Assembly: GCA_035938215.1 (NCBI GenBank)
Contig: DASZHC010000054.1
Location: 830-64,829, forward strand
DNA length: 64,000 bases
Source: Chthoniobacterales bacterium
GTDB lineage: Bacteria > Verrucomicrobiota > Verrucomicrobiia > Chthoniobacterales > JAFAMB01
Reading direction: 5' to 3'
The number at the start of each line of letters is the position of its first letter. Position 1 is the stretch's first letter. Both the position numbers and the translations under genes were made by a program. The notes under the pieces were generated by a model. That model was given only the letters and a program-made list of their open reading frames with translations, had not been told where the DNA came from and ran no database searches. Positions 17,422 through 57,661 of this stretch are shown piece by piece.

Positions 17422-19002
17422 TCAATTACTTTTCGGCTTAAGCTGATAATTTCTTGCGACGCCCCTGAATGCCTCGACCTGATTTTGCTGCCAGCCTGTG
17501 TCGCGTCCCAATTCTTTAGCCAATAATTCGGCGACAGCCGGAGCCGCATCTACAGCTGCCGTGGAATCGAGCAGCAGCGCGCGAGTCCTTCGCGCAAGTA
17601 CATCCTCGACCGTACGCGCCATTTCTTCGCGCACTGCCCAAACAACTTCGGCCTTCATATAGGGAAGCCTGCGATCGAGGGGCGCGTCAAGCTCTTTGTC
17701 CGATGCTGCCAGCTCATTGATCCTCGCACGATCGGCCCCGTAGACAGCCAAATGGAGAGGGGATGCAAAAGTTTCCACGCTCCGGCTGTGCCCGTGAAGT
17801 GGAAGCTCAGATGTACGTGAAGGAGCGGAGGGCAACCCGGCGAGTTTGATGACCTGATCGATGCAGTCTTCGCCCATCCGGCGATAGGTTGTCCATTTGC
17901 CTCCAGTGATTGTGACCAAGCCGGAAGCAGAAATAGCGACAGTGTGTTCGCGGGATAATCCTGACGTTTTGCTGGCGTGTCCAGCCTTGACCAAAGGCCG
18001 AAGCCCAGCGTAGCAAGAAAGCGCGTCTGATTCGGTTGGATCCTTTGCGAGATACTTGCCTGCTTCAGAAAGAATAAATGCAATTTCGTGGGCCTGGATG
18101 CGGGGCTCTTCCACCGGCTCAGGAACTGGTCCGTCAGTGGTGCCGAGAATCACCCGGTCGTGCCACGGTATGCCAAACAGAACCCTGCCATCAGAGGTCT
18201 TGGGCACCATCAGCGCCGAGGTGCCCGGTAGAAAAGTCCGCGGCAGAACCAAATGCGCGCCCTGACTAACCGCGAGCATCTTCTCCGTTCCCGGCGCATC
18301 CATTTGCCGGATCGAATCGACGAAAACTCCGGTCGCATTAACGACCGCTCGAGCCCTAACTTCAAACTCCGACCCGCTCTCTCGATCCCGAATCACCGCT
18401 CCGACTACTTTGCCGCCGTGCTTAGTAATTCCGACGACTTCGGCGTAATTGACCGGGAAGCCGCCAAGATCCGAAAGCGTATGCGCCAGAGTCACGGCCA
18501 GTCGCGCGTCATCAAACTGCCCATCAAGATAAAGAATCCCCCCTTTCAGGTGGTTCTGTTCGACCGTAGGCAGATGGCGAATGGTTTCGGACTTGCCTAA
18601 CGCTTTAGAGGGACCAAGAGAGAGCTTTCCCGACAATCTATCGTAAATTCCTAAGCCGATTGCATAAAACGGAATTTCCCAGAGGCGATAAGCAGGGATC
18701 ACGAACTTGAGCGGATGGACAAGGTGAGGGGCATTCTTTAGCATCAACCCTCTCTCATGCAGGGCTTCCCTCACCAACGCGATATTGCCTTGTTGCAGGT
18801 AGCGAACGCCGCCATGAGCCAATTTCGTCGCGCGGCTCGAGGTTCCCTTTGCAAAATCCGTTTTTTCCACAAGAAGGGTTCGAAATCCGCGCGACGCGGC
18901 CTCCACTGCGGTGCCGAGACCCGTCGCTCCGCCGCCTAGAACCAGGCAATCCCAGACGATTGACGAGTCTGAGATTGCTTGGATTGCAACGCTCCTGTCC
19001 AC
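17422..19002 (-). CDS. glpD: FAD-dependent glycerol-3-phosphate dehydrogenase
   Basis: 526 aa. VLGGGATGLGTAVEAASRG dinucleotide fold. Adjacent to glpK and glpF. Confidence 0.9.
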   Translation of the reverse strand: MDRSVAIQAISDSSIVWDCLVLGGGATGLGTAVEAASRGFRTLLVEKTDFAKGTSSRATKLAHGGVRYLQQGNIALVREALHERGLMLKNAPHLVHPLKFVIPAYRLWEIPFYAIGLGIYDRLSGKLSLGPSKALGKSETIRHLPTVEQNHLKGGILYLDGQFDDARLAVTLAHTLSDLGGFPVNYAEVVGITKHGGKVVGAVIRDRESGSEFEVRARAVVNATGVFVDSIRQMDAPGTEKMLAVSQGAHLVLPRTFLPGTSALMVPKTSDGRVLFGIPWHDRVILGTTDGPVPEPVEEPRIQAHEIAFILSEAGKYLAKDPTESDALSCYAGLRPLVKAGHASKTSGLSREHTVAISASGLVTITGGKWTTYRRMGEDCIDQVIKLAGLPSAPSRTSELPLHGHSRSVETFASPLHLAVYGADRARINELAASDKELDAPLDRRLPYMKAEVVWAVREEMARTVEDVLARRTRALLLDSTAAVDAAPAVAELLAKELGRDTGWQQNQVEAFRGVARNYQLKPKSN

Positions 19003-19018
19003 AACCGTGAAAGGCGTT

Positions 19019-20500
19019 TTACGCCCAGGCTTTCGCGCGTTCCAATGCTTTGTTCCAACCTGCGCGAAGTTTCTGGCGCTCGTCGCTTCCGATTTTTGGT
19101 TCGAACGTGCGGTCCGAGCCCCATTGCGACTCGATTTCGCCGATCGAATTGTAGAAGCCGACGGCTAGGCCTGCCAGATATGCTGCGCCCATCGCCGTTG
19201 TCTCCGGGTTCGACGCACGCACCACCGGCACTCCGAGCAGGTCCGCCTGGAATTGCATGAGCAGGTTGTTACCGCACGCGCCGCCGTCGACTCGGAGTTC
19301 CGCCAATTTTATTGACGAGTCAGACTCCATCGCGGTCAGAATATCGGCAACTTGGTAGGCAATGCCCTCCAGAGCGGCTCGCGCGATGTGCGCCGCGGTG
19401 CTGCCGCGGGTGAGCCCGACAATTGCGCCTCTCGCATAGGCATCCCAGTGTGGAGCGCCAAGGCCGACAAAGGCTGGAACCAGATACACACCGCCGTTGT
19501 CTTGCACACTGGCTGCGAGACTTTCAACCTCAGGGGATGTTCGGATGATGCCGAGACCATCACGCAACCACTGTACGACGGCCCCTGCAATGAAGACGCT
19601 TCCTTCAAGCGCGTATTCGGTTATGTTATTCCTTCGCGACGCAATGGTCGTGAGGAGATTGTTTTTTGACGGGACGGCTTCGGTGCCGGTGTTCATCAGC
19701 ATAAAGCAGCCGGTACCGTAAGTATTTTTAGACATTCCGGGTTTACTGCACATCTGACCGAACAGAGCGGCTTGCTGATCACCGGCGATCCCTGCGATGG
19801 GAATTCCGGCTAACGTGCCGGCTGACGACACTCCGTAGACTTCACTTGAGCTCTTCGCGGCAGGCAGCACGGAGCGTGGTACGTGCAAAGCGTTAAGGAG
19901 CTCGTCATCCCAGTCCCGGGTGTGAATATTGAAAAGCATGGTTCGCGAGGCATTGGTTTCATCCGTCACGTGAACTTTGCCATCTGTCAGTTTCCAAATA
20001 AGCCAGGAGTCGACTGTTCCAAATGCGAGCTCGCCGCGCTCCGCTCTTTCCCGGACCCCCGGAACGTTGTCCAGGAGCCAGCGCACCTTTGTTCCAGAAA
20101 AGTAGGCGTCGATCACCAGTCCCGTTTTGCCCTGGATAAGCGGCAGCAGGCCATCGGCACGCATCTGATCGCAGATCGGAGCGGTTCTGCGGTCCTGCCA
20201 CACGATCGCATGGAAGACGGGTTCGCCCGTTTTTCGATCCCACAGAAGCGTGGTCTCACGCTGGTTTGTTATTCCGACGGCGGCGATGTCCGCCAAGCTG
20301 ATATTCGCGCGACCGATTGCGTCCGCTGCGACAGCAATCTGGCTCGCCCAGATTTCATTCGGATCGTGTTCGACCCAGCCAGGCTGGGGAAAGAACTGGG
20401 TAAATTCCATTTGTGCGACGGAGACAACTTTACCGGAGTGATCGATCACTAGAGCTCGAGAGCTCGTGGTACCCTGATCCAGAGTAATTAGGTATTTCAT
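19019..20500 (-). CDS. glpK: glycerol kinase (copy 1)
   Basis: Start at [15 protein letters not shown] (CAT at 20498-20500). Full-length FGGY kinase with canonical DQGTTSSR. Confidence 0.95.
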
Positions 20501-20525
20501 ATTATTTCCTTGAGATGCGTTTAGG

Positions 20526-21275
20526 TTATTGGGGGGGCGGGGCACTCCCGAAAGTGGCTGCATAGACAAGCGCGCCGATCACACCGCCGATGATTGGGCC
20601 AACAACTGGGATCCAGCCGTAGCTAAAATCGGAGTCACGTTTGCCCGGAATTGGCAGTATAGCGTGGGCAATGCGAGGCCCAAGGTCACGCGCAGGATTG
20701 ATTGCATAGCCGGTTGGACCGCCTAGCGACATGCCGATTGCCCACACCAGAACCGCGACAACCCATGGTCCGATCGCACTTCCGAAACCCTCCGGCGTCT
20801 TTGGGCCGGAGAAATAGGTCATCGAAAGAACGCCGAAAACCAGAGTGAAGGTTCCGATGATCTCTGTTACCACGTTTGCCGCGTAATCACGAATAGCCGG
20901 ACCTGTGCAGAAAACGGCCAGTTTCAGGTCGGCGTTTTCCGTTGCCTCAAAATGTCTCCTGTAAGCGATCCAGACAATGACACCGCCCAGGAAGGCGCCG
21001 ATCATTTGAGCGATAATGTATGGCACCACGTTTGCCCAAGGGAATTTGCCGATGACCGCCAGGCTAATCGTTACAGCCGGGTTAATGTGAGCGCCGCTGA
21101 TCGGCCCGGACGCGTACACGCCCACGGCGACCGCCATGGCCCAGCCGGTGGTTATCACAATCCAGCCGGAGTTTTGTCCCTTTGTCTTACTTAAAACGAC
21201 GTTAGCAACAACGCCGTCTCCGAAAATTATGAGCAACATCGTGCCGATGAGCTCGCCGATGAATGGATTATTCAT
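20526..21275 (-). CDS. glpF: MIP-family glycerol uptake facilitator
   Basis: 249 aa. Two NPA boxes (HINPAVT, AINPARD). Confidence 0.9.
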
Positions 21276-34982: not shown

Positions 34983-35020
34983 CCAGAACGGCCAATGAAG
35001 TTGCTGGTGCGTGCCGTCGA

Positions 35021-35773: not shown

Positions 35774-35876
35774 GGGTTGAGGGGAAGAATGGATAATTTT
35801 TGTTCGCAGCTATCTTGTGACAGTTAATACCGCTAAAAATTCCGGCTGAACGATTAATCTATTCTCAACGAATAGT

Positions 35877-35979
35877 AGTGCGCCGTCTCGCATATAATGG
35901 TGATGTCGCCGCAGGTCAGTCGGCTGTTTTTCAGGCGCGAGCGACGAGCATATCTAGATCGATACCTAAGGACTGGGCA
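35877..35979. repeat. family B element, diverged left half (copy B1)
   Basis: ...GTCAGTCGGCTGTTTTTCAGGCGCGAGCGACGAGCATATCTAGATCGATACCTAAGGACTGGGCA aligns with the first roughly 100 bp of B3. Confidence 0.55.
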
Positions 35980-36000
35980 CCCGAGCTTTTGTCCCGAAAC

Positions 36001-36087
36001 GCGGCTCGCCGGAAGGCTCGCCCTACCATTGATGCGCCATGGAAACATGACCCTGCAGCGGTAGGGCGAAGCTCTGCTGAGCCGTCG
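36001..36087. repeat. degenerate family A-like arms in tail-to-head order (copy A6)
   Basis: CGGCTCGCCGGAAGGCTCGCCCTACC ... GGTAGGGCGAAGCTCTGCTGAGCCGTCGC. Diverged loop sequence. Confidence 0.4.
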
Positions 36088-36527
36088 CAATTCTCCACCA
36101 CAAACTAAACTCGGGATACATCATTCCCAAATAAATCTTCGGCGCCGTAAACGGTGGACTCGAATGTATGGGGAGGGCCGAAAACGGAGCACTGATGCAC
36201 AATCTTGCAGCGGCTCCTGTTCACCCGAGCGCTCGCTGAGCTCTCAATACTCGCGAGTTGTCTTGGCTGAGACCAGGCGAGCGTCGCCGGATTAGCCGGT
36301 ACAGGCGACCTGTGTGTCACTTGTCAAGCCGGCCGCAATTGGCGCTTAGGCCGGCTACTTGGGCTTGGACTGACCTATTCGCAGGCCAAGGCAAAGCACA
36401 TGGCGGTTCGCCAGACACGCTCGAGGGTCGCTGGGACGATTATCCTTGGTTCAAGGAATCGGTGAATTGGACAGAGGCGCGATTCGGGTGGAAATTTGCG
36501 ATCGGATTGCAGAGTTTCGATGTCCAG

Positions 36528-36688
36528 TGCGGCGAGTTATAAGCAGGAGGCATCCCGCCGCCCGCGAGTTGGTTGATTTTCAAGCCACGAACGACGAGCA
36601 TATCTAAACCGGATATGCTCCTCAGGTACGTCTCGCATACGGATCCTTTTGAAGCCAACGGTATAGCTCCTATTTATGACTCGATGTA
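36528..36688. mobile_element. family B MITE-like element, internally deleted form (copy B2)
   Basis: Both termini and flanking modules align with B3. About 107 bp of the B3 centre is absent. Central hairpin GAGCATATC-N7-GATATGCTC. Confidence 0.65.
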
Positions 36689-37185
36689 CCAGCCCCTGGG
36701 TTTTTGTTTTGGTCGTCTTGTTGCTTGTGGTGGGTTTTGCCCCGCGTTCAAGCGGCGAAATGATTGATCAACGTAACTTTGCGATTGATACCTATTTTCC
36801 TGGGCCGAATGAAATCCGTTTGGCCGGGCAACGAGCGCGGAACTATTGGGCGAAGAATGCGAATCGTTATGGCTCCAATCCGGTTTATCTTGCTGTCGAA
36901 ACTTCAAAGATTTTCGAAAGCGAAATTGTGCAGGATCTTTGGCCCAAGTTGATAAAGTCGCAAACAACAAGCTCCTTTTTCTCTAAGTCGCCGGGGAGAC
37001 ATCACACCGAAGCCGACTTAAAGGGAATCATGATTTTTGATACCCGCACCGGGACCGTTGTAGGTAATCGGGGCTTCGTTTTGGTCGATACTCCTAGCCG
37101 CGGGCGCGTCGCTCGGTTTGGCGATTACGTTGCCCGGTACATCGGCACTGGGCGGTCCTTCCCTGGGATTGTTGGTGGAAACTGA
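36676..37185 (+). CDS. hypothetical exported protein
   Basis: 169 aa. N-terminal hydrophobic segment VFVLVVLLLVVGFA. The ATG and first codons lie inside the right terminus of repeat B2. I recognise no family. Confidence 0.5.
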   Translation: MTRCTSPWVFVLVVLLLVVGFAPRSSGEMIDQRNFAIDTYFPGPNEIRLAGQRARNYWAKNANRYGSNPVYLAVETSKIFESEIVQDLWPKLIKSQTTSSFFSKSPGRHHTEADLKGIMIFDTRTGTVVGNRGFVLVDTPSRGRVARFGDYVARYIGTGRSFPGIVGGN

Positions 37186-37313: not shown

Positions 37314-38261
37314 TCAGTGAAATCCGAGGCTTAGAAGATTGACGACTTTTCCGATGTTTTCCGATGTTACAAGACTTGGGCCGGTGAGAATAAAATCATT
37401 CTGCAGGATCGAGCCGTACCTGATGTAGTTGGCGAGAAATACAATGGGGAGATAACCTTGCAACCATTCCTGTTGGTCAATCGCAAATTCGATTTGCTTC
37501 TTCGCGAGGGCGGCCATGACAGCCGGAGAAATGTCGAATGTGCATAGTTTGATCTGGCCCATTTTTCCGAGCTGAACGATGGTTGCCAAAGCCGGTTCAG
37601 CAGCTGTTGAGCCGAGAGCCATAATCCCGTCGACATTCTGGTTCCTCTGCAAATAGTCGCGAACCAGATTCTGGCATTCTCCGAAATCCATTTTGACCGC
37701 GAGAACCTGAACGTGATGAAACGGACCTTCGAACCCTGCCCGGAAGCCTTTAATTCGCTGTTCAAGCCCAAAATTTCCAACCTCCTGGTTTAAAATGATG
37801 GCTTCCTTGACTCCCATTGCTTTCATCTTTTGACCCGCTTTGCGACCTGCGGCTCCCTCATCTTGACCGATGTACATGAGACACCCGAGTTGGCGGGATA
37901 CCTCCAACCCGGAGTTAATCGAGATCACAGGAATTTTTGCAGCGACCGCAGCCTTTATGGATCTTGATAATGCGGCAGCGTCGGGAATCGACACGACGAG
38001 GGCATCGGGTTTGGATGCGACGGCTTCATCGATTAGTTGCGCCATTGCCTGCACATCAAATTTCTCAGGAGCACGATATTCAACGTCGCTGCCCGTTTCT
38101 TCGGTGGCAATTTCTACGCCGTTTCTGACAATCAACCAAAATGAGTCCGCGGCCTGGCCATGGGTCACCACGATGATCCTGGGTTTTGTTAGCGCGTGGG
38201 AGACGAGAGGAGTGAGGAGAGCCACGGCCAATGCCAGCCACAACTTGAATCTCGGATTCAT
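37314..38261 (-). CDS. periplasmic sugar-binding protein (RbsB-like, PBP type 1); no cognate permease or ATPase adjacent
   Basis: Start at [16 protein letters not shown] (signal peptide). The ATG overlaps the glpK2 stop (TGATG at 38259-38263). Confidence 0.8.
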   Translation of the reverse strand: MNPRFKLWLALAVALLTPLVSHALTKPRIIVVTHGQAADSFWLIVRNGVEIATEETGSDVEYRAPEKFDVQAMAQLIDEAVASKPDALVVSIPDAAALSRSIKAAVAAKIPVISINSGLEVSRQLGCLMYIGQDEGAAGRKAGQKMKAMGVKEAIILNQEVGNFGLEQRIKGFRAGFEGPFHHVQVLAVKMDFGECQNLVRDYLQRNQNVDGIMALGSTAAEPALATIVQLGKMGQIKLCTFDISPAVMAALAKKQIEFAIDQQEWLQGYLPIVFLANYIRYGSILQNDFILTGPSLVTSENIGKVVNLLSLGFH

Positions 38262-39754
38262 CAGGGGAGGTTCGCGTGGATATCCGGCCTCGTACCATGT
38301 AAAACCTTGCTCCATCCGGAGCGCAACGATTCGCGCCGGTCCTGACTCATGCGCGGAGTGAAAGTTTCGCCAGCCTTCCATTGGGAGCTGATCTCCCCAG
38401 TCGATTTGAAGTAGCCCACGCCCAGACCCGCCAGGTAAGCGGCACCCATTGCCTTTGTTTCATCATTCTTCGGGCTGACGACAGGAACCCCGAGTATGTC
38501 CGCTTGAAACTGCATGAGCAGTTTGTTCTTGCAGGCGCCACCATCGACGCGCAGGTCGGAAAGCTGGATGCCGGAATCGGATTCCATCGCCGTGAGGATA
38601 TCCGTCACCTGATAGGCAATACTTTCAAGGGCTGCGCGAGCGATGTGGCCAGCCTTTGTGCTTCGCGTCAAGCCAACGATCCGTCCCTGTGCATACGGAT
38701 CCCAATAAGGGGCCCCCAAACCGGCAAAGGCGGGCACAAAATAGACGCCTCCGTTGTCCTTCACCGTAGCGGCGAGTTGTTCAACTTCGTCAGCCGATCG
38801 GATGATTCCCAATCCGTCCCGTAACCACTCAACCACAGCGCCTGCGCTGAAGACGCTGCCTTCGAGGGAATACTCGGTTTTGTGATTAATTCGCCAGGAA
38901 ACAGTCGTAACCAATTTGTTCTTTGAAACGATCGGCTGTGACCCCGTGTTCATGAGCATGAAACAACCGGTACCATAGGTATTCTTCACCATTCCCGGCC
39001 GGTTACACATGTGGCCAAAAAGCGCAGCCTGCTGATCCCCGGCATTTCCGGCGATTGGGATTCCGCGAAGCCCTGTTGTCACCTCGCCATAAATTTCGCT
39101 GGAACCTCTAATTTCTGGCAACAGCAGCCTTGGAATACCGAGCGCGTTGAGAAGGTGATCATCCCAACTATGCGTACGAATGTTATAGAGCATTGTTCGA
39201 GACGCATTCGTTTCGTCTGTGCAGTGGCACCGACCCCCCGTGAGTTTCCAGATCAGCCAGGAGTCGATCGTTCCAAAGGCCAGTTCACCCCTCTCAGCGC
39301 GCTCCCGGGCGCCAGGGACGTGATCCAGAAGCCAACGAACTTTCGTGCCGGAAAAATACGCATCGATCATAAGCCCGGTTTTTCGCTGAATAAACGGCTC
39401 CAAACCGTCGGCTTTCATCGTTTCGCACATGGGCGACGTCCGACGATCCTGCCAAACGATCGCGTTAGCAATCGGCTGCGAGGTTTGCCGATCCCAAATC
39501 ACCGATGTTTCGCGTTGATTGGTAATGCCGACGGCAGCAATATTCTCGGGCCCGATGTTTGCCTGACGCAATGCTTGAGTAGCGACACCGATTTGGGCCG
39601 ACCAGATTTCGTTGGGATCATGTTCCACCCAACCCGGGTGCGGATAAATCTGGGTGATTTCCTTCTCTGCGACCGAAACCTTTTGACCGAGATAATCCAC
39701 CACCAGTGCGCGAGCGTGCGTAGTGCTTTGATCAAGAGCGAGAAGATATTTCAT
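38261..39754 (-). CDS. glycerol kinase paralogue (copy 2, divergent phosphate-1 loop)
   Basis: 497 aa. Collinear with copy 1 at roughly 70% identity by eye, but has [10 protein letters not shown] where copy 1 has [13 protein letters not shown] overlap with the dhaM stop. Confidence 0.9.
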
Positions 39755-42252
39755 GCCGTAAGGCTTCTAGAGAATTTTCGAACATCCGACGCGGCGCTGA
39801 ACGAAGTGATTCTTGGTGCCAGTTGGCTGGAGATCCACCCGGCGTTCAATTTTCGGATCAGAGATTTCGTTCCCGGAATTGCTGCCGTCGTTACGCTGAA
39901 CTCGCGCAAGCCCAATCCCAGCAAGATGGGAATAGCATCGGGATCTGACGCTGCCTCGCCGCAAACGGATGCTTCCACTCCATTTTCACGCGACTTTCGG
40001 ATTACCTGTTCACAAATTCGTATGACAGCTGGATGGAGCGGGTCAGCGAACGCTGAGAGTGCAGGACTTCCGCGTTCCGCACAGAGCAGATATTGGGTCA
40101 GATCGTTCGTGCCGATGCTTAGGAAATCGATATGCGGAATAAGTTGATCGATCAACAGAGCCGCGGCCGGCGTTTCGATCATCGCGCCCAGGGGGATTGG
40201 CCAATGACATGGGAGTGCCTGGTTCCTGAGTTCGTGCGCCAGTTCATCCAGGAGCCTTTTCAGGTCGAGGATTTCGGAAACATCGGTGATCATCGGCACG
40301 AGAAGCTTGAGCGGAACGGATTCAGCGAGCCTCAACAGGGCACGCAGATGGGTGCGCAAAAATCCCGGATTGGCAAAGAGCAATCTGATCCCTCGCACAC
40401 CTAGAAAAGGGTTGGCTTCTTTGTGCGAGCGCAAGAACTTGAGCGGCTTGTCTGCACCTACATCCAGCAAACGGACGGTGATAGGCAAGACTTTCTTGTC
40501 GCTTCCAAACGCGCGGCGATAGATGTTCAGCTGTTCCTCTTCGTCCGGTTCGTGGTTAAAATGCTGAAAAAGGAATTCTGAGCGAAAAAGTCCAATCGAT
40601 TCAGCGCCATATTTATGCGCGTTGGAGATATCCTGGGCAGAGCCCGCATTTGCCGCTACGAGGATTTGAACGCTATCTGAAGTTACGGCCGGTTGCTCGC
40701 TCTGCTTCAACGCTTCTTCCAGCTGAGAATATTCAAGTTGCTGCAATCCTGTAAGCCGCGCAAGAAGATCGGAGGGAGGATCGATCCAGAGTGAACCTTC
40801 AGCGCCGTCGATAGCGACTGTACCCGCGGTTCGAATCTTTTGCTCATAGCTTTGCGCGCCGCCGATCGCCGGAAGATTGAGAGCGCGTGCTAGAATGGCG
40901 CCGTGGGACGTTGTCCCGCCTTGCAGTTGAATCACGCCAAAGATGCCAAGGCGAGTAAGCTCTTCGGCAAGAGATGGAGTCAGTTCGTCGCAGACCAATA
41001 TTTGACCGTCGGTAAATGGTTTCTCCTGCAAAGGGGAAGCGTCTGTCTCAATTATGTGATCCAATGCGATCCGTTCCACCTCGCGGAGATCTGCGGCGCG
41101 AGCGCGAAAATAAGGATCATCGGCTCTTTCCTGATCCGCGATATGGCGAGCCAGGATCTGGTGCCATGCCGCGGCGGAATTCAGGCGATCTTTCCGGATT
41201 TTTTGCTCGACCTCATGGACGATCGACGGATCTTGCAAAATCATGCGCTGCGCTTCGAGGATCTCAAGATCAATGGGTTGCAGAGAAGATCGCAGGCGGC
41301 TGACCCGGGCGTCGAAATCTTCGGTCGAAGCGTCTAGAGCCAAATGAAGCCGCGAAATTTCCGAAGCGATCTCGGAGTCCGTCTGAACCTTGTAGGTCGG
41401 AATTTCGGCGGGAATCGAAGCAAAAAAGGCGGGATGGCCGATCGCGATTCCTCGCGACACGCCGAATGTACCGGATTTCTTTGGTTCTTCAGCGAGCTTG
41501 GCAGAAGCCGCGGCTTGCCGTGGAGATTCACCAAATTGGTTTGCAACCAACGACCGGATCGAATCAATCAAGGGTTGAGGGTCTGGCGAGGAAATCGAGA
41601 AGCGGACGGAGTCTCCCTGCCGAATCTGGAGTCGCGTGACATCGACCAGACTTTTTGCCGCAACCGGCCCGCGACCGGCGGTCAGATTTTCGATCAATAC
41701 CTCTCCTTGAAATGCGGCCAGCGTTTTTATCAGAGTCGCGGCGGGCCGAAGATGCAGGCCATGTTCGTTCTCGACTGTGAGCTCCAGGATTTCAGATCCG
41801 GAGGGGGTAACGATCGACAGCCCTTTGTCCTCAACCGGGATGCTATCCTGGACATGGTCCTGTTTCGGAAGCAGGCTTTCCCGGGCCGCCTTGGCTACGT
41901 CTGAAATCGGGGAGCCCAACTGCGCTTGAACGGCGGCGGCGATACCGCCTTCCACAAGAGGGGCAGAACTAAGAACGATTTTCTCCTGCTGTTGAAAGTC
42001 GAGAAAATCCTTCGCCGTCTCTGCGCTAAGAATAGCGCTTCCCATATCCATGAGCACCAAAACACCCTCCTCCGAATAGACGCTTGTAACCGCCTCCTGA
42101 ATTTCAACCGCATCGGTTCCCAATTCCTCTCGTTTGTCGCCGATGCCACCCGAGCAAGCGATAGAAAGATTGGGGTGAACCGTGCGACGAATCAAGTCGA
42201 CTGCGGCCTCCGCCAAAGGCCGGCTGTGCGAAACCAGGACAAGTCCTACCAT
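39751..42252 (-). CDS. dhaM: DhaM-type multiphosphoryl transfer protein: EIIA(Man)-like + HPr-like + complete enzyme I domain
   Basis: 833 aa. [13 protein letters not shown] (EIIA His), [11 protein letters not shown] (HPr His), [19 protein letters not shown] (EI His), C-terminal PEP-binding barrel ([22 protein letters not shown]). Confidence 0.85.
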
Positions 42253-42330
42253 TCGATAACGGATGCTATGCGCGCTCCAGGTCGCAAGCGACCGGGAACG
42301 CTTCGGTTAGTTGATTCTACTTTGATCCTA

Positions 42331-42966
42331 TTACAGAGAAAGAGTCTCAGCAGCTGCGCGGAAAAGAAGGACAGTCGAAGTAGCGCCCGGATCCGCGTGT
42401 CCAGCACTCCGCTCACCTAAGTAACTCGCCCGCCCCTTTCGCGCGACGATTGGAATCGTCGATCTCAATCCCTCTTCCGCCGCAACCGTTGCGCTTTCCA
42501 GAGCCTTCTGCAGGTCCTCTCCAGCCCCGATCGAGTACTTATAAGCTTTGATGGCCGGCTGCAGCGCATCGACCATGGTCTTGTCGCCTACTGCGGCCTT
42601 TCCTCGCAATACAATTCCCGCGAGACCTTTATCCAGTACGGTTCCGAACTCGGCCGGAGAGAGTTCAGGTTTAGCACCGGCGGCCGTGCTTGCCTGCAAA
42701 AAGAAGGTTCCATACAACGCACCGCTTGCCCCACCCACCGTTTGAATAAGCGTCATCGCGACGATTTTGAACAACCCGCCGACGTCTTTGTTCTGAAGGT
42801 CCGCCTTCTTCGCCAGAACGGCTTGAAAACCGCGATGCATGTTTGCGCCGTGATCTGCATCACCAATCGCGGAATCGAGTTCGGTTAGATAATCTTTCTG
42901 GTCTGCGATATGTCCGGCATATCGCTCAATCCAGCTGATAAATTTATCTTTGGAAATATTGGACAT
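42331..42966 (-). CDS. dhaL: dihydroxyacetone kinase, ADP-binding subunit
   Basis: 211 aa. LDSAIGDADHGANM motif. Confidence 0.9.
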   Translation of the reverse strand: MSNISKDKFISWIERYAGHIADQKDYLTELDSAIGDADHGANMHRGFQAVLAKKADLQNKDVGGLFKIVAMTLIQTVGGASGALYGTFFLQASTAAGAKPELSPAEFGTVLDKGLAGIVLRGKAAVGDKTMVDALQPAIKAYKYSIGAGEDLQKALESATVAAEEGLRSTIPIVARKGRASYLGERSAGHADPGATSTVLLFRAAAETLSL

Positions 42967-43051
42967 AATTTTCTAGCGAATTCGGGAGCAACTCTCTGGG
43001 AACTGGTGGTGGAATGTGGCTGAGTGGCAACGAGTTGTAGATTGCGGCGTT

Positions 43052-43132
43052 GGTAGGGCCGGATCTCCGAGCCGGCCGGTTGCTGGCTGGCAGCCAGGTT
43101 CTCGACGGGCGGCTCGGAGATCCGCCCCTACC
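43052..43132. repeat. family A double-hairpin element (copy A4) inside the dhaK-dhaL gap
   Basis: GGTAGGGCCGGATCTCCGAGCCGGCC ... GGGCGGCTCGGAGATCCGCCCCTACC. Preceded by an F-like half GTAGATTGCGGC. Confidence 0.85.
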
Positions 43133-43266
43133 AAGTCGTATGAGTCATCTTGAGCTTTTTGCACAAGTCACATAGCTTCAAGTAGTTGTGAACGCTATCT
43201 AGACCAGCTGAGAGTCGCTCCCGGAATGGCGCATGCGGACGCCCGGACCTTTCGGTCGCGTTCCGA

Positions 43267-44268
43267 TCAGGTGCCCCACCGAAGACCCGGAGTCAAGACC
43301 GGTGCATCCCAAAGCCTTGTCAACTCGTCATCCAGCTTCAAGACTGTGATCGATGTGCCCGCCATCTCCAGACTGGTGATGTATGGGCCGACCAGACTCC
43401 GCGTCACCTTGATCCCGGCTTTCGTGAGAATTTCGTGTGCCTTGCGGTAAACAACGAAAAGCTCCAGGAGCGGTGTTCCACCCATGCTATTGACAAAAAG
43501 GAGAACTTCATTCCCGCTCTTAAAAGGCAAATCCTCTACGATCGGTCCGAGAAGAATTTCAGTAATTTCGTCAGCGCTTTTGAGCTTTGTTCTGGTGCGT
43601 CCGGGCTCGCCGTGGATACCTATGCCAATCTCCATCTCGTCCTCTGGAAGATCGAAGGTCGGCTTGCCGACGTGAGGCACGGTACACGAAGTGAGAGCCA
43701 TTCCCATGCTACGACCGTTGGCATTCACCTTATGGCAAAGGGCAGCAACTTCTTTGAGGGAACTACCTGCCTCGGCGGCCGCGCCGCAGATTTTTTCAGC
43801 AAGCACTGTTGCGCCAACGCCGCGCCGTCCGGCCGTGTAAAGGCTATCCTTCACGGCAACATCATCGTCGATCACCACGGCTTCGACCTCGATAGTCTCC
43901 GCGCGCGCCAGATCGGCTGCCATCTCAAAGTTCATCACGTCCCCGGTGTAGTTCTTGACGATGTGCAGAACCCCATTGCCACCATTCACCGCTTTTGTGG
44001 CTTCATACATTTGGTCGGGCGTCGGACTTGTGAAAACCGCACCCGGGCACGCCGCGTCAAGCATTCCGCGGCCGACGAACCCACCATGCATCGGTTCATG
44101 GCCGCTTCCGCCGCCCGAAACCAGGGCGACCTTGCCCTTTACGGGGGCATCGGCGCGAGTGATGAAATTGGGATTGGTGTGAACTTTGATAATATCGCTG
44201 AAAGCGGCACCGAGGCCGGTAATTGATTCGAGGACAACGTTCTCAGGCGAGTTGATGAGCTTTTTCAT
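43267..44268 (-). CDS. dhaK: dihydroxyacetone kinase, DHA-binding subunit
   Basis: Start at [12 protein letters not shown] (CAT at 44266-44268). [15 protein letters not shown] motif. Confidence 0.9.
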
Positions 44269-44368
44269 TTTTAGGGGGGAGAGACTTAAGTTAGCAGATT
44301 TCCTGTTCAGGGATGCTGCAAAAAAGGAAACGACATCATTAAGGATAAGGAAATAAAATAAAACTGGC

Positions 44369-44398
44369 AATACTGAACCAGCCAGCCGGTTCAGTATT
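44369..44398 (-). promoter_or_regulatory. perfect 11-bp inverted repeat between tetR and dhaK (tetR terminator and/or operator)
   Basis: AATACTGAACC-AGCCAGCC-GGTTCAGTATT with T-rich flanks on both strands, about 100 bp upstream of the dhaK start. Confidence 0.4.
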
Positions 44399-44450
44399 TT
44401 TCGCTAAGCGATTCCTTTGTGCCGCCAAGGCTTCTGTTTCCAAGGGATTT

Positions 44451-45083
44451 CTATTTCGCCTCACTCGAAGACGAGCAAGACGAACCCTTGGAATGATTTG
44501 ACCGGTCGAATTCCTCGACTAACTGCAACATGCGCTCGGTGACTTTTCGAATCTGGGAGGGGGTCAGGAAGGAAAGATTTAATAACTCCATCAAGAGCAA
44601 TCCCTGTGATGCGAGAAACAGGACCGCGACATCCTCCATTCTGAGGTTCAACTGTTTACAGAGGTCTTGAAACTCGTTTTGAAACGACTCGCGCATCGGT
44701 GCCACAAGCTTCGGATCATTCGCGATAGCCGCCACGACAGCCGTCAATACCGGTCGCTGTCCCTCAAGGTGGCGAAGAGTTCCGATGATGTTGGCTTTCA
44801 TTTTGCCGTTTCGCTCCCCGATCAGCGATTCAGCAACCTTGGTGTGTTCACTCTCCAGCAGCTGCATCGAGCGTCGGATCATGGCCTCGAGCAAAGCTTC
44901 CTTGGATCGGAAGTGATAGAAAAGGCCGCCCTTGCTGACCTTGGCTTCATTAGCAGCTGTTTCGAGGGTAAGGTGGGCTGGGCCGCGTCTTGCGACAATC
45001 TCTTCGGCTGCCTGCAGGATCGATTCGCGTGAATCTCGTTTGCGTCTACCGGGAACCGGGGGGCCGGTGGGGGTTCGGCTCAT
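44451..45083 (-). CDS. TetR/AcrR family transcriptional regulator
   Basis: 210 aa. HTH region LTLETAANEAKVSKGGLFYHFRSKEAL. Confidence 0.85.
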   Translation of the reverse strand: MSRTPTGPPVPGRRKRDSRESILQAAEEIVARRGPAHLTLETAANEAKVSKGGLFYHFRSKEALLEAMIRRSMQLLESEHTKVAESLIGERNGKMKANIIGTLRHLEGQRPVLTAVVAAIANDPKLVAPMRESFQNEFQDLCKQLNLRMEDVAVLFLASQGLLLMELLNLSFLTPSQIRKVTERMLQLVEEFDRSNHSKGSSCSSSSEAK

Positions 45084-45263
45084 TCCAGATCATACGAATA
45101 ACCGGCCCAATAGTACACCGAAAAGCGCAATCGTCCGGCAGGCGGCCATTTTTAACGCAGCGAAATTCTAGCGAATCAGGTATTCCTCTTCGATTTTCGG
45201 CGCTCGTTGTCTATGCTCTTTTTGCAAGGTCTCAATCCAAATTCAACACGCGGGAATTTATTC

Positions 45264-54643: not shown

Positions 54644-55600
54644 ATGAGACGAGGGAAGTTACCTTTTATTCCGGTTGGCGAATTTTACACCCGGCATGCG
54701 GACCCGCTTCAGCTCAAACTCGTAGGACCGTCTCTTGGCTTCGAACGCAAAATTCGTGAACCTACGATCAATCGCCCCGGTTTGGCGCTCTCCGGTTTTT
54801 TTACCTATTTTGCCGCGAAACGCATTCAAGTGCTGGGGAACGCAGAAGTTAGCTACTTAAAGAGCCTGCCACAAATCGAACAGCAGGAGCGGTGTCTCCA
54901 ACTCTGCCGCCAGCATGTCCCTTGTATCGTCGTCTCTCGAAATTTGCCGGTTCCGAAAGCTTTGTCAGATGCTGCCGCAGAACTGACCATCGCCATTTTT
55001 AGAACACCGATGGTAACGATGCGGTTTATCAACGCGGCGACGATCGGCCTTGAAATGGATTTTGCTCCCACCACTACCGAGCACGGCAGCATGGTGGACA
55101 TTATGGGCATTGGGGCGATGATCCGGGGTTCGAGTGGCGTTGGCAAAAGCGAGTGCGTCCTCGGTCTGATTGAACGCGGGTACAGTCTTGTAAGCGACGA
55201 TGTTACGCGCTTCCGCGTTTTGGATGGGCGTGAACTTGTTGGCACAGCACCGGATCTAACGCGTTATCATATGGAAGTCCGAGGGCTCGGAATCATTAAT
55301 GTCGCTTCCATTTTTGGAGTTGGTAGCATCAGGATTGAAAAGCGTCTTGACCTGGTAGTAACCCTGCGTGACTGGCAAGAGCTTGAAGAGGTTGATAGGA
55401 TTGGACTTGAGCAGGAATTTTACGAGATTCTAGACATTCGGATTCCGCACATCACCATTCCTGTCAGGACGGGGCGCGATCTGGCTCGATTGGTTGAGGT
55501 GGCCGCCTTGGATCAAAAGCTGAAAGGCCTTGGTCAGAACAGCGCGGTGGAATTTAACCAGCGGTTGTTGAATTTAATGCAATCGAACAAGGAGATGTGA
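54644..55600 (+). CDS. hprK: HPr kinase/phosphorylase
   Basis: 318 aa. P-loop GSSGVGKSE; signature EVRGLGIINV. Confidence 0.9.
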   Translation: MRRGKLPFIPVGEFYTRHADPLQLKLVGPSLGFERKIREPTINRPGLALSGFFTYFAAKRIQVLGNAEVSYLKSLPQIEQQERCLQLCRQHVPCIVVSRNLPVPKALSDAAAELTIAIFRTPMVTMRFINAATIGLEMDFAPTTTEHGSMVDIMGIGAMIRGSSGVGKSECVLGLIERGYSLVSDDVTRFRVLDGRELVGTAPDLTRYHMEVRGLGIINVASIFGVGSIRIEKRLDLVVTLRDWQELEEVDRIGLEQEFYEILDIRIPHITIPVRTGRDLARLVEVAALDQKLKGLGQNSAVEFNQRLLNLMQSNKEM

Positions 55601-55899
55601 TGGGTTTGTTGAGTAGGCGACTAGCTTCGGGAAAAATTCAAAAAGAGGTAACGATTTTGAATAAGCTCGGCTTACACGCTCGCCCGGCGGCCATGTTCGT
55701 ACGTGTGGCCAACAAACACAGAGCGGATATCTGGGTTGAAAAAGACGGAGAACAAGTTAACGGGAAGAGCATCATGGGACTGATGATGCTTGCGGCCGGC
55801 CAGGGGACAAAACTGCTTTTATCGGTTGAGGGCACTGATGCCGAAAAGGCTATTCAGGAACTCGAACTGCTGATCGAAAAACGATTCGATGAGGAATAA
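55600..55899 (+). CDS. ptsH: phosphocarrier protein HPr
   Basis: GLHARPAAMF (His-15 site) and NGKSIMGLMML (Ser-46 site). The ATG overlaps the hprK stop (TGATG); a GTG at 55597 is also possible. Confidence 0.9.
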   Translation: MGLLSRRLASGKIQKEVTILNKLGLHARPAAMFVRVANKHRADIWVEKDGEQVNGKSIMGLMMLAAGQGTKLLLSVEGTDAEKAIQELELLIEKRFDEE

Positions 55900-57661
55900 G
55901 GCCGGAATGAGCGGTCAGGAAGCAAGATTTCAGGGGCTGGGTGTAGGTCCAGGGATTGCCCGCGGGATCGTTTTTATCCATCACCCCGACGACGAAGAAC
56001 CTCCTAAAAGGCGAATTGATGAATCTGACGTCGCCAACGAGATCGTTCGCTTCGAGAGTGCGCTCATTGCGACTCGCGCGCAGATCCTCGAAATGCAGCA
56101 ACGCATCGCCGAGGCGATCGGCGCAAAAGATGCCAGCATTTTCGACGCGCATTTACTGGTCGTCGAAGACCGAACCTTGATCGACGAGGTGCTTCGCACG
56201 CTTGAGCGGGACAAGTTTAACGTGGAATTCATTTTCGCCGAGGTTGCGAATCGGTATGCGAAAACGTTAAGCGAGATAGACGATCCGTATCTGCGTGAAC
56301 GGGCGTTCGATATACACGATGTTACTCGTCGTGTGATTCGCAATTTGCTCGGGCGGTCGACGAAGACCCTTGGTGCCATGGATGTGCCTCAAATCGTGGT
56401 CGCCCACAACATCACGCCGTCTGATACGGCGATGCTGAATCGCCAGATGGTCCTTGGCTTTGCTACAGACGTGGGTAGCCGGACATCGCACACGGCGATC
56501 ATGGCGCGTTCATTGAACATCCCCGCGGTGGTGGGTCTGAAGGATATTTCATTGCGCCTGCAACCGGGGGATCAAGTACTGCTCGACGGAAACAGTGGCG
56601 TTGTGATCCTGAATCCCACCGAGCAGACCTTGTGGGAATACGGCGAGATCGAGGTCAAATTGGAACATGTCCAGGAGGTGCTGACGGGACTACGGGACAC
56701 TGAAAGCACAACGGCGGACGGCCGTCATGTTATCCTCTCCGCCAACATTGAATTGCCGGAAGATGTTCCGCTCGTAGTCGAAGCCGGAGCCGAAGGCATA
56801 GGCCTCTATAGAACCGAGTTTTTCTATATGAACAAAAACGAGCTGCCGAGCGAGGAAGAGCAATTTGACACTTATCGCTCGGTTGCCGAGGCAATTATGC
56901 CGGAATCGGTCATTATTCGAACTCTGGATTTAGGCGGTGACAAGTTTTTGAGCCATTCCCATCTTCCAACGGAGATCAATCCATTTCTCGGTTGCCGAGC
57001 CATCCGGTTTTGCATTGAGCGTCCCGATATTTTCAAGGCCCAGTTGCGTGCGATTCTGAGAGCGGCAGCTACAGGAAATGTTCGAATGATGTTCCCAATG
57101 ATATCCGGATTGTCCGAGTTGCGACAGGCGAAGGAAATTCTGGAAGTCTGCAAAGCGGAGCTTCGGGACGAGCGCAAGCCGTTTAAGGAGGATATCGAGC
57201 TTGGAATAATGATCGAGGTGCCGAGCGCGGTTCTGGTCGCGGACGCGCTGGCCCGTGAGGTGAAGTTTTTCAGCATCGGCACTAATGATTTGATTCAGTA
57301 CACAATTGCCGTGGACCGGGTAAATGAACGAATCGCGCACCTTTACGAACCTACGCATCCCGCGATTCTGCGTCTGATCGAGATGACGGTGACAGCGGCT
57401 CATGCCAACGGTATCTGGGTCGGCGTTTGCGGAGAGATGGCCGGCGAAATCACTTTGACGCCGCTTTTGCTCGCACTTGGGGTCGATGAGTTGAGTGCCA
57501 GCGCCAGCCTGGTGCCAAGAGTAAAAAAAGCTGTACAGACATTGGACACGAAAGAGTGCAATCGGCTACTCGAAGATATTCGGGACCTTCATTCCGCAGC
57601 CGAAATCCTGGAGCGTTGCGAAGAAGTTGCGCGGCGTCATTATGCGGAATTATTGAATTGA
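55889..57661 (+). CDS. ptsI: phosphoenolpyruvate-protein phosphotransferase (enzyme I)
   Basis: 590 aa. GSRTSHTAIMARSLNIPAVVG; FFSIGTNDLIQY; GVCGEMAG. The start may be the Met at 55907. Confidence 0.9.
   Translation: MRNKAGMSGQEARFQGLGVGPGIARGIVFIHHPDDEEPPKRRIDESDVANEIVRFESALIATRAQILEMQQRIAEAIGAKDASIFDAHLLVVEDRTLIDEVLRTLERDKFNVEFIFAEVANRYAKTLSEIDDPYLRERAFDIHDVTRRVIRNLLGRSTKTLGAMDVPQIVVAHNITPSDTAMLNRQMVLGFATDVGSRTSHTAIMARSLNIPAVVGLKDISLRLQPGDQVLLDGNSGVVILNPTEQTLWEYGEIEVKLEHVQEVLTGLRDTESTTADGRHVILSANIELPEDVPLVVEAGAEGIGLYRTEFFYMNKNELPSEEEQFDTYRSVAEAIMPESVIIRTLDLGGDKFLSHSHLPTEINPFLGCRAIRFCIERPDIFKAQLRAILRAAATGNVRMMFPMISGLSELRQAKEILEVCKAELRDERKPFKEDIELGIMIEVPSAVLVADALAREVKFFSIGTNDLIQYTIAVDRVNERIAHLYEPTHPAILRLIEMTVTAAHANGIWVGVCGEMAGEITLTPLLLALGVDELSASASLVPRVKKAVQTLDTKECNRLLEDIRDLHSAAEILERCEEVARRHYAELLN

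Follow-up and report, generated by a model that had tools for sequence, protein, structure and literature searches.

A TetR-linked DHA kinase operon with a complete-Enzyme I DhaM in a Chthoniobacterales genome

A DHA kinase operon whose phosphate-donor subunit, DhaM, carries a complete Enzyme I (EI) raises the questions of whether it can draw on PEP independently of the general phosphotransferase system (PTS) and of which substrate it serves. Such a locus is found in a Chthoniobacterales metagenome-assembled genome (Verrucomicrobiota; JAFAMB01; GCA_035938215.1), in a 64-kb stretch of contig DASZHC010000054.1 (positions 830-64,829) that is hereafter termed the window. The original prediction for this locus held that the EI was complete, that DhaM had an unusual architecture and that the substrate might be a ketose derived from a neighboring polyol locus. 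The complete EI and a gene order that is not unique to this strain were borne out, while the unusual architecture and the polyol-ketose substrate were not. Our analysis indicates that the locus is probably a TetR-controlled operon for a PEP-dependent DHA kinase, with a self-charging DhaM, a second glycerol kinase (GlpK2) working in parallel and an unrelated periplasmic binding protein (SBP).

The predicted succession of a TetR gene and dhaK-dhaL-dhaM-glpK2-SBP was recovered as six open reading frames with Pfam and NCBIfam matches, all of them on the minus strand:

44451..45083, minus strand: tetR, TetR-family regulator, 210 aa
43267..44268, minus strand: dhaK, DHA-binding subunit, 333 aa
43050..43134, no strand assigned: palindromic repeat element (REP/MITE-like hairpin) inserted in the 300-nt dhaK-dhaL spacer
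42331..42966, minus strand: dhaL, ADP-binding subunit, 211 aa, separate polypeptide
39751..42252, minus strand: dhaM, 833 aa, domain order EIIA(Man)-HPr-complete Enzyme I
38261..39754, minus strand: glpK2, second glycerol kinase, its start overlapping the dhaM stop
37314..38261, minus strand: orphan periplasmic SBP of the inositol/rhizopine CUT2 family, 315 aa with signal peptide

Mechanically assigned starts were too long for two of these genes. The dhaK start was placed at the ATG at 44268, yielding a length shared by 15 of the 15 cluster members listed, and the SBP start at the ATG at 38261, in agreement with the commonest length among its homologues (315-316 aa). Both anticipated overlaps can be read directly in the sequence, with an ATGA (39751-39754) joining the dhaM stop to the glpK2 start and a TGATG (38259-38263) joining the glpK2 stop to the SBP start. 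Packing of the five genes is not uniform, given the 300-nt gap between dhaK and dhaL. The repeat lying in this gap has 29-nt arms that are 93% complementary, and its predicted RNA fold reaches -65.3 kcal/mol (z = -7.85). Another copy is located at about 11560-11650 of the window, and the element was absent from all the related loci in which it was looked for. An Rfam scan of the 35-46.5 kb region detected no riboswitch; its sole matches were miRNA look-alikes below threshold, located on this repeat. This repeat could interfere with the co-transcription of dhaK and dhaL.

The two kinase subunits match the PTS-dependent type. DhaK (Pfam Dak1, E 9e-135) scores 493.7 bits against the TIGR02363 equivalog (cut-off 406.25) and aligns with the E. 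coli DhaK structure 4lrx (E 4e-112), conserving both the GIHGEPG motif that contains the His218 equivalent and the His56/Asp109 motif region. DhaL (Pfam Dak2, E 1e-53) scores 233 bits against TIGR02365 (cut-off 138.3) and matches E. coli DhaL (3pnl_B, E 4e-52), with a conserved Mg/ADP motif (IGDADHG). The three-subunit design is the same as that of E. coli DhaK-DhaL-DhaM (YcgT/YcgS/YcgC; Gutknecht et al. 2001, cited in PMC2405797), with DhaK and DhaL as clear orthologues and the N-terminal half of DhaM sharing the EIIA(Man)-HPr-EI-N order. The E. coli DhaM, described as the form without EI (PMC2405797), extends no further than the EI N-terminal/His domain and relies on the general EI and HPr; the protein analyzed here has the PEP-binding barrel as well. 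The locus further differs from its E. coli counterpart in having a TetR regulator instead of DhaR, and in the appended glpK2 and SBP genes.

The domains of DhaM are arranged as follows:

41908..42252, minus strand: EIIA(Man)-like domain, residues 1-115, with His9; PF03610 EIIA-man (residues 3-115), 6e-21
41542..41784, minus strand: HPr-like domain, residues 157-237, with His167 and Ser201; PF00381 PTS-HPr, 1e-16
39751..41463, minus strand: Enzyme I, residues 264-833; PF05524, PF00391 and PF02896 (3.5e-91)

The EI portion comprises an N-terminal HPr-binding domain (PEP-utilisers_N, residues 264-385), the mobile His450 domain (PEP-utilizers, 414-486) and the PEP-binding barrel with Cys764 (PEP-utilizers_C, 515-803). 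The motifs quoted in the original prediction are present in the translation, and the C-terminal region, on which the claim of completeness depended, aligns with the EI PEP-binding domain both in Pfam and in solved structures. Alignment with the EI structures 2hro (residues 32-556, E 2e-96) and 2wqd extends over the full length of EI, end to end in the case of 2hro, and includes the SVCGE active-site Cys motif and the phospho-His motif (2hro, 2wqd; Staphylococcus EI). For the DHA-kinase proteins, the sequence-level matches to known structures leave no ambiguity. DhaM exceeds the cut-offs of both the DhaM donor-subunit family (TIGR02364 dha_pts, 115.8 bits, cut-off 98.25) and the EI family (TIGR01417 PTS_I_fam, 444.2 bits, cut-off 341.7, residues 264-827). 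It is not a member of the E. coli-type DhaM family (NF008478, about 473 aa; 292 bits, cut-off 520), the profile of which spans only residues 1-489 of its 833. With this domain order and dhaK-dhaL immediately upstream, DhaM conforms to the definition of IIA(Man)-HPr-EI multiphosphoryl transfer proteins. The NCBI label of the protein, 'phosphoenolpyruvate--protein phosphotransferase', conceals its DhaM nature.

Given a DhaM with a complete EI, the natural reading is a relay that would run without the general EI and HPr, and the conservation of the catalytic residues of DhaK, DhaL and DhaM makes a self-contained relay from PEP through DhaM and DhaL-ADP to DHA the best reading of the sequence data. 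Under such a scheme, DhaM would take phosphate from PEP and pass it from His450 to His167, His9 and DhaL-ADP, and thence to DHA, without PtsI or HPr. DhaL would keep ADP as a fixed cofactor that is re-phosphorylated by DhaM, and DhaK would bind DHA covalently via its His218-equivalent residue. The searchable literature yielded no experiment on any complete-EI DhaM and no apparent published test of one without EI and HPr, so that this self-sufficiency is an inference from sequence. A separate PTS cluster is also encoded in the window, as originally noted, at a distance of about 13 kb rather than the 14 kb given for ptsI/ptsH:

54644..57661, plus strand: hprK-ptsH-ptsI, general regulatory-type PTS, with Hpr_kinase_N/C and three EI domains

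Within this cluster, ptsH (55597-55899) encodes an HPr with GLHARPA and GKSIMG motifs and is followed by ptsI (55889-57661). Cross-talk with the general EI and HPr encoded in the same genome is hence possible. The presence of this cluster also lends itself to a reading in which the fused EI is redundant or chiefly a site of cross-talk, and the HPr and EIIA domains of DhaM are charged in vivo by the general PtsI/HPr, as they are in E. coli, or gated by HprK at Ser201, so that the operon is not autonomous. The Ser46-equivalent Ser201 is in fact invariant among 45 homologues, as are H9, H167, R169, H450 and C764. Ser46 is, however, conserved also in the HPr of organisms that lack HprK, and is therefore not diagnostic. 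Furthermore, the invariant residues include all the catalytic ones of the DhaM EI, and this domain is an old paralogue, only 32% identical to the PtsI encoded in the same window, that has been kept across several phyla. Its retention and its invariant residues argue for selection on the EI's own activity, and we therefore regard a non-autonomous operon as unlikely.

A role for DhaM beyond DHA kinase, for instance in a phosphorelay regulating GlpK2 or other targets, would make the operon partly a signaling device. In two metagenomic contigs (L004 and L005), dhaK and dhaL are deleted and tetR runs directly into an intact dhaM, and the DhaM of this type (P0013) keeps all the invariant catalytic residues; the translational coupling of glpK2 to dhaM would also fit such a role. 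Against it, dhaK and dhaL may reside elsewhere in the genome of these two contigs, or their deletion may be recent, and dhaKL adjoin dhaM at every other locus, apart from two that are cut off upstream of dhaM. In GlpK2, the loop corresponding to the phosphorylated one of Firmicute GlpK shows no His, which speaks weakly against control by His-phosphorylation. Taken together, we deem such a role highly unlikely. The tetR-dhaM-only variant nonetheless hints at DhaM targets beyond DhaL. A 37-aa ORF following dhaM in L004 was considered as a glpK remnant and found not to be one.

The DhaM architecture itself is widespread. IIA(Man)-HPr-EI proteins encoded next to dhaKL were described in 2008, and all of the 120 best database matches share the five domains. 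The same domain order is seen in proteins encoded next to dhaKL in Vibrio parahaemolyticus (PMC2405797) and on plasmids of cultured Vibrio casei and Cryobacterium, where the five-domain protein lies next to dhaK-dhaL; IIA(Man) multiphosphoryl-transfer proteins are reported to invariably accompany DHA kinase genes (PMC2405797). The V. casei protein is 35% identical to DhaM over residues 1-803, in a plasmid with the order gldA-dhaK-dhaL-'ptsP'-dhaR. A single-polypeptide relay from PEP to EIIA for one substrate is likewise known in Pseudomonas FruB (IIA(Fru)-HPr-EI; PMC2405797), but with an EIIA of another class and a membrane permease, instead of a soluble kinase, as acceptor. A scan of genome contigs with DhaM used peptide patterns that were too specific and returned only two loci (a Chthoniobacterales MAG and an unrelated EI). 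A scan of metagenomic contigs (alignment A2) yielded 80 loci through generic EI motifs, mostly HPr-EI or plain EI, of which only the 13 with a match starting near residue 1 were retained. Among 12 distant metagenomic lineages with a five-domain DhaM (34-40% identical), 10 carry dhaK-dhaL with it and two are cut off just upstream. The five-domain DhaM is also accompanied by dhaK-dhaL in the Verrucomicrobia loci compared, apart from the L004 and L005 contigs. Searches for literature on Verrucomicrobia, DHA kinase and PTS found nothing relevant. The operon design is thus already known from many bacteria, and the finding is an ordinary one.

Gene order among relatives bears on the substrate. Related loci retain tetR-dhaKLM, one of them with an identical glpK2-SBP tail, and L001 establishes that the order is not confined to this strain. 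In L002, L009 and L018, dhaM is directly followed by glpF-glpK(-glpD), and distant full-EI dhaM operons also pair with glpF or glpK. Linkage of dhaKLM to glpF, glpK or both is seen at L002, L009, L018, L019, L022, L024, L027, L028 and L041. The window also contains a canonical glycerol operon:

17422..21275, minus strand: glpF-glpK1-glpD, with MIP, FGGY and DAO/DAO_C domains; GlpK 728 bits

The substrate proposed in the original prediction was instead erythrulose or another ketose from the adjacent polyol locus, with the SBP delivering a polyol. DhaK-family enzymes acting on erythrulose exist, and the polyol-type locus at 22-35 kb does encode an RbtT/DalT-family transporter, two xylulokinase-like FGGY kinases and an SDR resembling GolD/DthD (233 bits, cut-off 286). 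In addition, the reported absence of gldA holds true, as tblastn with two GldA proteins gave no match at E <= 1e-3 in the window, nor any in the verrucomicrobial loci compared, and no DHA-producing enzyme was identified in the 64 kb. Yet DhaK and DhaL lie above the equivalog cut-offs for PTS-dependent DHA kinases, and relatives devoid of the polyol locus (L002, L009, L018) keep tetR-dhaKLM running into glpF-glpK-glpD. Moreover, the polyol island deviates in GC content (63-65% versus about 53%) and has kinases of its own, the nearest relatives of the SBP with an annotation belong to inositol loci, and SBP orthologues in other Verrucomicrobia are not linked to dha. A ketose substrate is hence very unlikely, and the glpF/glpK linkage seen in relatives and distant lineages ties the operon to glycerol and DHA, the presumptive physiological substrate, rather than to the high-GC island. 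The SDR (35021-35773) is not favored as the missing glycerol dehydrogenase, though still a lead, as it falls under the GolD/DthD cut-off and generic SDR models score better. It is set apart from the dha operon by a convergent ORF. The locus is not a dha regulon of the Klebsiella/Vibrio type, in which gldA/dhaD is linked to dhaKLM: the Vibrio and Cryobacterium loci have gldA and DhaR or IclR, whereas those of Verrucomicrobia lack gldA and have a TetR gene together with glp genes.

GlpK2 is a genuine glycerol kinase by TIGR01311 (703.5 bits, cut-off 590.35) and a distinct paralogue, being 88% identical to the L001 copy, 67-70% to all glpF-linked GlpKs and 70% to the GlpK1 of the window. Translationally coupled to dhaM and ATP-dependent, it may also act on DHA, which glycerol kinases accept as well; we therefore propose that the operon funnels C3 compounds into DHAP beside glpF-glpK1-glpD. 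A glycerol kinase has a part in DHA use by Haloferax volcanii, where the dhaKLM/glpK cluster is archaeal and DhaM is not described in that study as carrying a fused EI (PMC3863723).

The SBP (Pfam Peripla_BP_4, 5e-44; PDB 4ru1, E 2e-41) shares its fold with the inositol/rhizopine CUT2 binding proteins and is 53-57% identical to those heading SBP-permease-ATPase-iol clusters in Thermus and Rhizobium. Unlike these, it falls short of the rhizopine SBP equivalog (NF052284, 306.9 bits, cut-off 420) and has no permease, ATPase or iol gene. The original observation that transport partners are missing extends to the whole window, with no CUT2 permease homologue at E <= 0.01 and no ATPase or iol gene in the 64 kb. 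No permease adjoins its orthologues at L006, L008 and L013-L015 either, and each of the eight verrucomicrobial contexts examined shows the SBP as an orphan. In other Verrucomicrobia, the orthologue is unlinked to dha and adjoins a CLC channel gene. The link of the SBP to DHA is thus weak, and its gene probably moved here in one sub-lineage, with the protein partnering a permease encoded elsewhere instead of the DHA kinase. The view of the SBP gene as a hitch-hiker leaves unaccounted for its TGATG coupling to glpK2, which speaks for co-expression. It is conceivable, though decidedly unlikely, that coupling from dhaM through glpK2 to the SBP gene is functional, with the SBP binding a small polyol or ketose such as glycerol or DHA, as a periplasmic sensor or scavenger serving the C3 module, or with DhaM as a second autonomous phosphorelay reaching targets beyond DhaL. 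If true, the orphan binding protein or the fused EI would gain a role not described so far.

TetR displays TetR_N (4e-13, 49 bits) and TetR_C_28 (1e-11, 45 bits) domains, which place it in the TetR family. At L001, L002/3, L006, L009 and L018, a TetR gene likewise lies upstream of dhaK, and at L004/5 one lies upstream of dhaM. The dha operon of Lactococcus lactis is reportedly controlled by the TetR-family activator DhaS and its co-activator DhaQ (Christen et al. 2006). TetR-family control of dhaKLM would be common to both systems, but the locus does not present DhaS/DhaQ-type regulation: no second Dak1 gene encoding a DhaQ-like co-activator was detected among its ORFs, its only Dak1 protein fits the DhaK model better than the DhaQ model (494 versus 257 bits), the regulator has a TetR_C_28 C-terminal domain and no NCBIfam DhaS model matched it at E <= 1e-3. 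DhaS and TetR go unmentioned in PMC4777399. An operator-like element was confirmed in the tetR-dhaK spacer:

44369..44398, no strand assigned: operator-like palindrome AATACTGAACC-GGCTGGCT-GGTTCAGTATT, between tetR and dhaK

This previously noted palindrome has perfect arms (11 + 8 + 11 nt) and occurs only once in the window. Its right arm overlaps the -35-like TTGCCA of a promoter-like TTGCCA-17-TATCCT (44370-44342). The exact palindrome was not found in relatives, and the conserved part is its core, TACTG(N)ACCGGCTG(G/A)CTGGTT, which alignment of four loci (A1) revealed as the sole invariant stretch of tetR-dhaK spacers that have diverged elsewhere. The region can alternatively form a weak terminator-like hairpin. 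TetR would most likely act as a repressor of the operon, bound to the 30-bp palindrome over the -35 region, a mode of action suggested by the geometry of the putative operator. Among the results presented here, this predicted operator is the most locus-specific.

The value of these results lies mostly in annotation, and they matter little otherwise. The locus-specific pieces amenable to testing are the conserved predicted TetR operator and the widely conserved orphan SBP of the inositol family. Chthoniobacterales and related soil Verrucomicrobia appear to have a dedicated PEP-driven DHA kinase beside their glycerol genes, with a phosphorelay that would be distinct from that of the regulatory HprK-HPr-EI proteins. 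The conserved predicted operator suggests that, besides DhaR and DhaS, dha genes have a third type of regulator.

Six genes were confirmed as open reading frames (ORFs) on the minus strand at 37.3-45.1 kb of the window:

44451-45083, minus strand: tetR, 210 aa
43267-44268, minus strand: dhaK, 333 aa
42331-42966, minus strand: dhaL, 211 aa
39751-42252, minus strand: dhaM, 833 aa
38261-39754, minus strand: glpK2, a second glycerol kinase gene, 497 aa
37314-38261, minus strand: gene for a secreted type-I binding protein (SBP), 315 aa

The mechanically called ORFs of dhaK (from TTG 44370) and of the SBP gene (from ATG 38381) are too long, and homologue lengths of 333 aa and 315-316 aa, respectively, back the shorter forms. 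The family assignment of every operon protein was supported at curated Pfam and NCBIfam thresholds, with NCBIfam matches for DhaK (TIGR02363, 494 bits against a cut-off of 406), DhaL (TIGR02365, 233 against 138), the DhaM N-domain (TIGR02364, 116 against 98), DhaM residues 264-827 (TIGR01417, Enzyme I, 444 against 342) and GlpK2 (TIGR01311, 704 against 590). The predicted overlapping junctions, ATGA between dhaM and glpK2 and TGATG between glpK2 and the SBP gene, were read directly from the sequence. The ORFs, profile assignments and junctions therefore confirm the operon outlined in the original prediction. Operon proteins have exact NCBI matches (HEV3209184, -185, -187), DhaM being labelled only 'phosphoenolpyruvate--protein phosphotransferase'.

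DhaM had been proposed to carry a complete Enzyme I (EI), and solved EI structures (2hro residues 32-556, E 2e-96; 2wqd) match the whole length of this part, with the active-site segments GGTTSH(450)GAIL and SVC(764)GE lying opposite GGRTSHSAIM and GMCGE. Pfam domains in DhaM comprise EIIA-man (residues 3-115), PTS-HPr (157-237), PEP-utilisers_N (264-385), the mobile His domain PEP-utilizers (414-486) and PEP-utilizers_C (515-803). The profile for E. coli-type DhaM (NF008478, 473 positions) scores below its cut-off and covers only residues 1-489, which locates what E. coli DhaM is missing. Residues H9, H167, R169, S201, H450 and C764 are invariant among 45 DhaM homologues (52-91% identical), the E. 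coli His56, Asp109 and His218 motifs are all retained in DhaK, and DhaL retains the IGDADHG ADP/Mg motif. The conservation of these catalytic residues supports a complete internal relay, in which phosphate would pass from PEP through His450, His167 and His9 to DhaL-ADP and then to DhaK-bound dihydroxyacetone (DHA). The notion of a self-sufficient relay is thus a reasonable reading of domains and residues, from which we infer EI/HPr-independence; no biochemical test of such independence for a complete-EI DhaM was found in the literature searched. Identity between the EI moiety and the PtsI of the window is only 32%; the moiety is an old dedicated paralogue rather than a recent fusion.

A regulatory-type PTS set (kdsA-lptC-lptA-lptB-hpf-hprK-ptsH-ptsI) lies at 50406-57661 on the plus strand; in its lptB-hprK interval, neither rpoN nor an ORF for EIIA(Ntr) is evident. 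Cross-regulation of the DhaM HPr domain by HprK is conceivable, because Ser201, the Ser46 equivalent of this domain, is invariant.

The gene order is not unique to this strain. The tetR-dhaK-dhaL-dhaM arrangement is kept in the comparison loci L001, L002/L003, L006, L009 and L018, which share its chromosomal neighbourhood (M16 peptidase, Zn-ribbon, YkuD, Transgly_assoc), and the genes 3' of dhaM differ between relatives. In L001 (DhaM 75% identical) dhaM is followed by glpK2 and the SBP gene, as in the window; in L006/L007 (~75%; 72-79% by tblastn) the SBP gene directly follows dhaM; and in L002, L009 and L018 (50-61%) dhaM is followed by glpF-glpK(-glpD). The window carries its own glpF-glpK1-glpD at 17.4-21.3 kb, and GlpK1 is orthologous to the kinases linked to glpF (87% and 79%), with GlpK2 being a distinct paralogue (88% identical to its L001 counterpart versus 67-70% to all others compared). 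Distant lineages encoding a full-EI DhaM present the orders glpK-glpF-dhaKLM (L022), glpF-dhaKL-glpK...dhaM (L024), dhaKL-glpK-dhaM (L028) and glpF-dhaKLM (L027 and L041). Given this linkage in both relatives and distant lineages, the recurring partner of this DHA kinase is therefore a glycerol facilitator and kinase set. DHA is also phosphorylated by glycerol kinase (PMC3863723).

The predicted absence of gldA holds throughout the 64-kb window. Furthermore, gldA has no match in any of the verrucomicrobial loci, and the glp-linked loci of other lineages likewise lack it. In E. coli, gldA also lies outside the dha operon. DHA could be either exogenous or the product of some dehydrogenase. A short-chain dehydrogenase (SDR) encoded at 35021-35773 on the minus strand (GolD/DthD subfamily, 233 bits against a cut-off of 286; generic SDR model, 283 bits) is a possible polyol or glycerol dehydrogenase and source of ketose or DHA.

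The original prediction had further suggested that erythrulose or another ketose from the polyol locus at 22-35 kb might be the substrate. This idea is not supported, because the locus is absent from relatives, where it is missing between dhaM and glpF, its GC content is deviant (63-65% in 24-28 kb versus ~53% elsewhere) and it has two kinases of its own; the glp linkage of dhaKLM also argues against it. The deviant GC content suggests horizontal acquisition of the island. Its genes (22000-35800) encode a MalK-like ATPase, two xylulokinase-like FGGY kinases, a histidine phosphatase, a D-2-hydroxyacid dehydrogenase and a CUT1 ABC transporter with its own SBP. An unusual 705-aa fusion (32810-34927, plus strand) joins an MFS polyol transporter of the RbtT/DalT/CsbX family (505 bits, above cut-off) to a C-terminal HAD-type hydrolase domain. 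The ~900 nt beyond the SDR gene (35774-36675) lack a convincing ORF and match nothing in Rfam. They give way to a plus-strand ORF (36676-37185) that converges on the SBP gene; its 169-aa product begins with a signal-like segment and belongs to no Pfam family.

The SBP of the operon combines a signal peptide with a Peripla_BP_4 fold. Its best NCBIfam model is a rhizopine-catabolism SBP (307 bits, below the cut-off of 420) and its best solved relative a CUT2 SBP (4ru1, E 2e-41), and the annotated proteins closest to it (53-57% identical) lead SBP-permease-ATPase clusters that lie among genes of inositol catabolism (iolG, iolD, iolC) on Thermus and Rhizobium plasmids. As predicted, it is an orphan: no CUT2 permease, matching ATPase or iolG was found in the 64-kb window, even as remnants. 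Verrucomicrobia commonly carry this protein, with the best 120 of 2729 matches (E <= 1e-10) being 67-92% identical. In six loci (L008 and L011-L015, at ~8001-8951 or 9001-9951) a ~70%-identical orthologue stands alone, divergent from a CLC chloride-channel/CBS gene. Immediately past the CLC gene, L011/L012 also encode a CUT2 ABC transporter of the inositol type that has a second SBP of its own. Our reading is that of a putative inositol-family binding protein, with a permease encoded elsewhere, that in one sub-lineage would have been relocated to a site 3' of dhaM; this leaves a single feature unexplained, the TGATG coupling of the SBP gene to glpK2.

A palindrome, AATACTGAACC-GGCTGGCT-GGTTCAGTATT, occurs once only in the window, at 44369-44398 in the tetR-dhaK spacer, with its two 15-nt halves matching at 13/15 positions. 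When the diverged spacers from the window, L001, L002 and L009 were aligned, TACTG(N)ACCGGCTG(G/A)CTGGTT was their sole invariant island, and this operator-like core is present in one copy per locus, always in that spacer, as a 3-mismatch variant in L018. The spacer has been lost from L006, where tetR directly adjoins dhaK. The right arm of the palindrome overlaps a -35-like TTGCCA, followed after 17 nt by TATCCT, a geometry that fits a putative TetR repressor operator. DhaS/DhaQ constitute a known type of dha regulator. NCBIfam profile searches with the window's TetR gave no match to any DhaS model, and no DhaQ paralogue is present; on these grounds it would add a third type of dha regulator to DhaR and DhaS/DhaQ. 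At 45093-45116, immediately before the tetR ATG, the block GTACTATTGGGCCGGTTATTCGTA appears by eye to be conserved upstream of tetR in L004 and L006, and may be a candidate autoregulatory site, because it has TACT...GGTT words in common with the dhaK operator.

In all relatives a C-rich tract (CCCCCCAAA(AC)) lies directly 5' of the dhaK ATG (window 44269-44285; L001 ~6170-6182; L002 ~6105-6119; L009 ~7955-7969; L018 ~1340-1354), and no Shine-Dalgarno-like sequence precedes the ATG in any of these five loci; the tract may provide a lineage-typical translation-initiation context. A palindromic element of ~85-95 nt with 29-nt arms (RNA fold -65 kcal/mol, z = -7.9) occurs twice: one copy (43050-43134) has been inserted into the 300 nt that separate dhaK from dhaL, and a second (~11560-11650) is found downstream of an aldo-keto reductase gene. 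Absent from every related locus, it looks like a REP/MITE-type mobile hairpin, and does not seem an obvious terminator, because no U-tract follows.

The assumption that this DhaM architecture is unusual was not borne out by database matches, distant metagenomic loci or cultured bacteria. IIA(Man)-HPr-EI proteins encoded beside DHA kinase genes have been on record since 2008 (PMC2405797). In a search of 5.8 billion proteins, all of the best 120 matches have the same five domains and ~830 aa, many being named 'multiphosphoryl transfer protein' or 'phosphoenolpyruvate-protein phosphotransferase/dihydroxyacetone kinase phosphotransfer subunit' at source. Using the EIIA-HPr half as query against 50%-identity cluster representatives yielded 361 clusters (E <= 1e-30); among the best 150, 73 reach 780 aa or more, with room for a complete EI, and 24 are 430-570 aa long, E. 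coli-like or fragmentary. Five-domain DhaM recurs in 12 metagenomic loci at only 34-40% identity, with dhaK and/or dhaL present in ten and the other two cut off just upstream of dhaM. In cultured bacteria, a Vibrio casei plasmid (gldA-dhaK-dhaL-'ptsP'-dhaR, 'ptsP' of 799 aa) and a Cryobacterium plasmid (iclR-dhaK-dhaL-'ptsP'-gldA) encode the same full architecture as 'ptsP'.

In two metagenomic contigs from different samples (L004 7331-10508; L005 178-3355), 37 nt separate tetR from a downstream dhaM that is intact, with all five domains; dhaK and dhaL are cleanly absent and a PhdYeFM/ParE toxin-antitoxin pair follows. This absence may reflect either a recent deletion or a use for DhaM without DhaKL.

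Overall, the window operon is a verrucomicrobial, TetR-controlled and glp-linked version of a long-recognised, widespread architecture.
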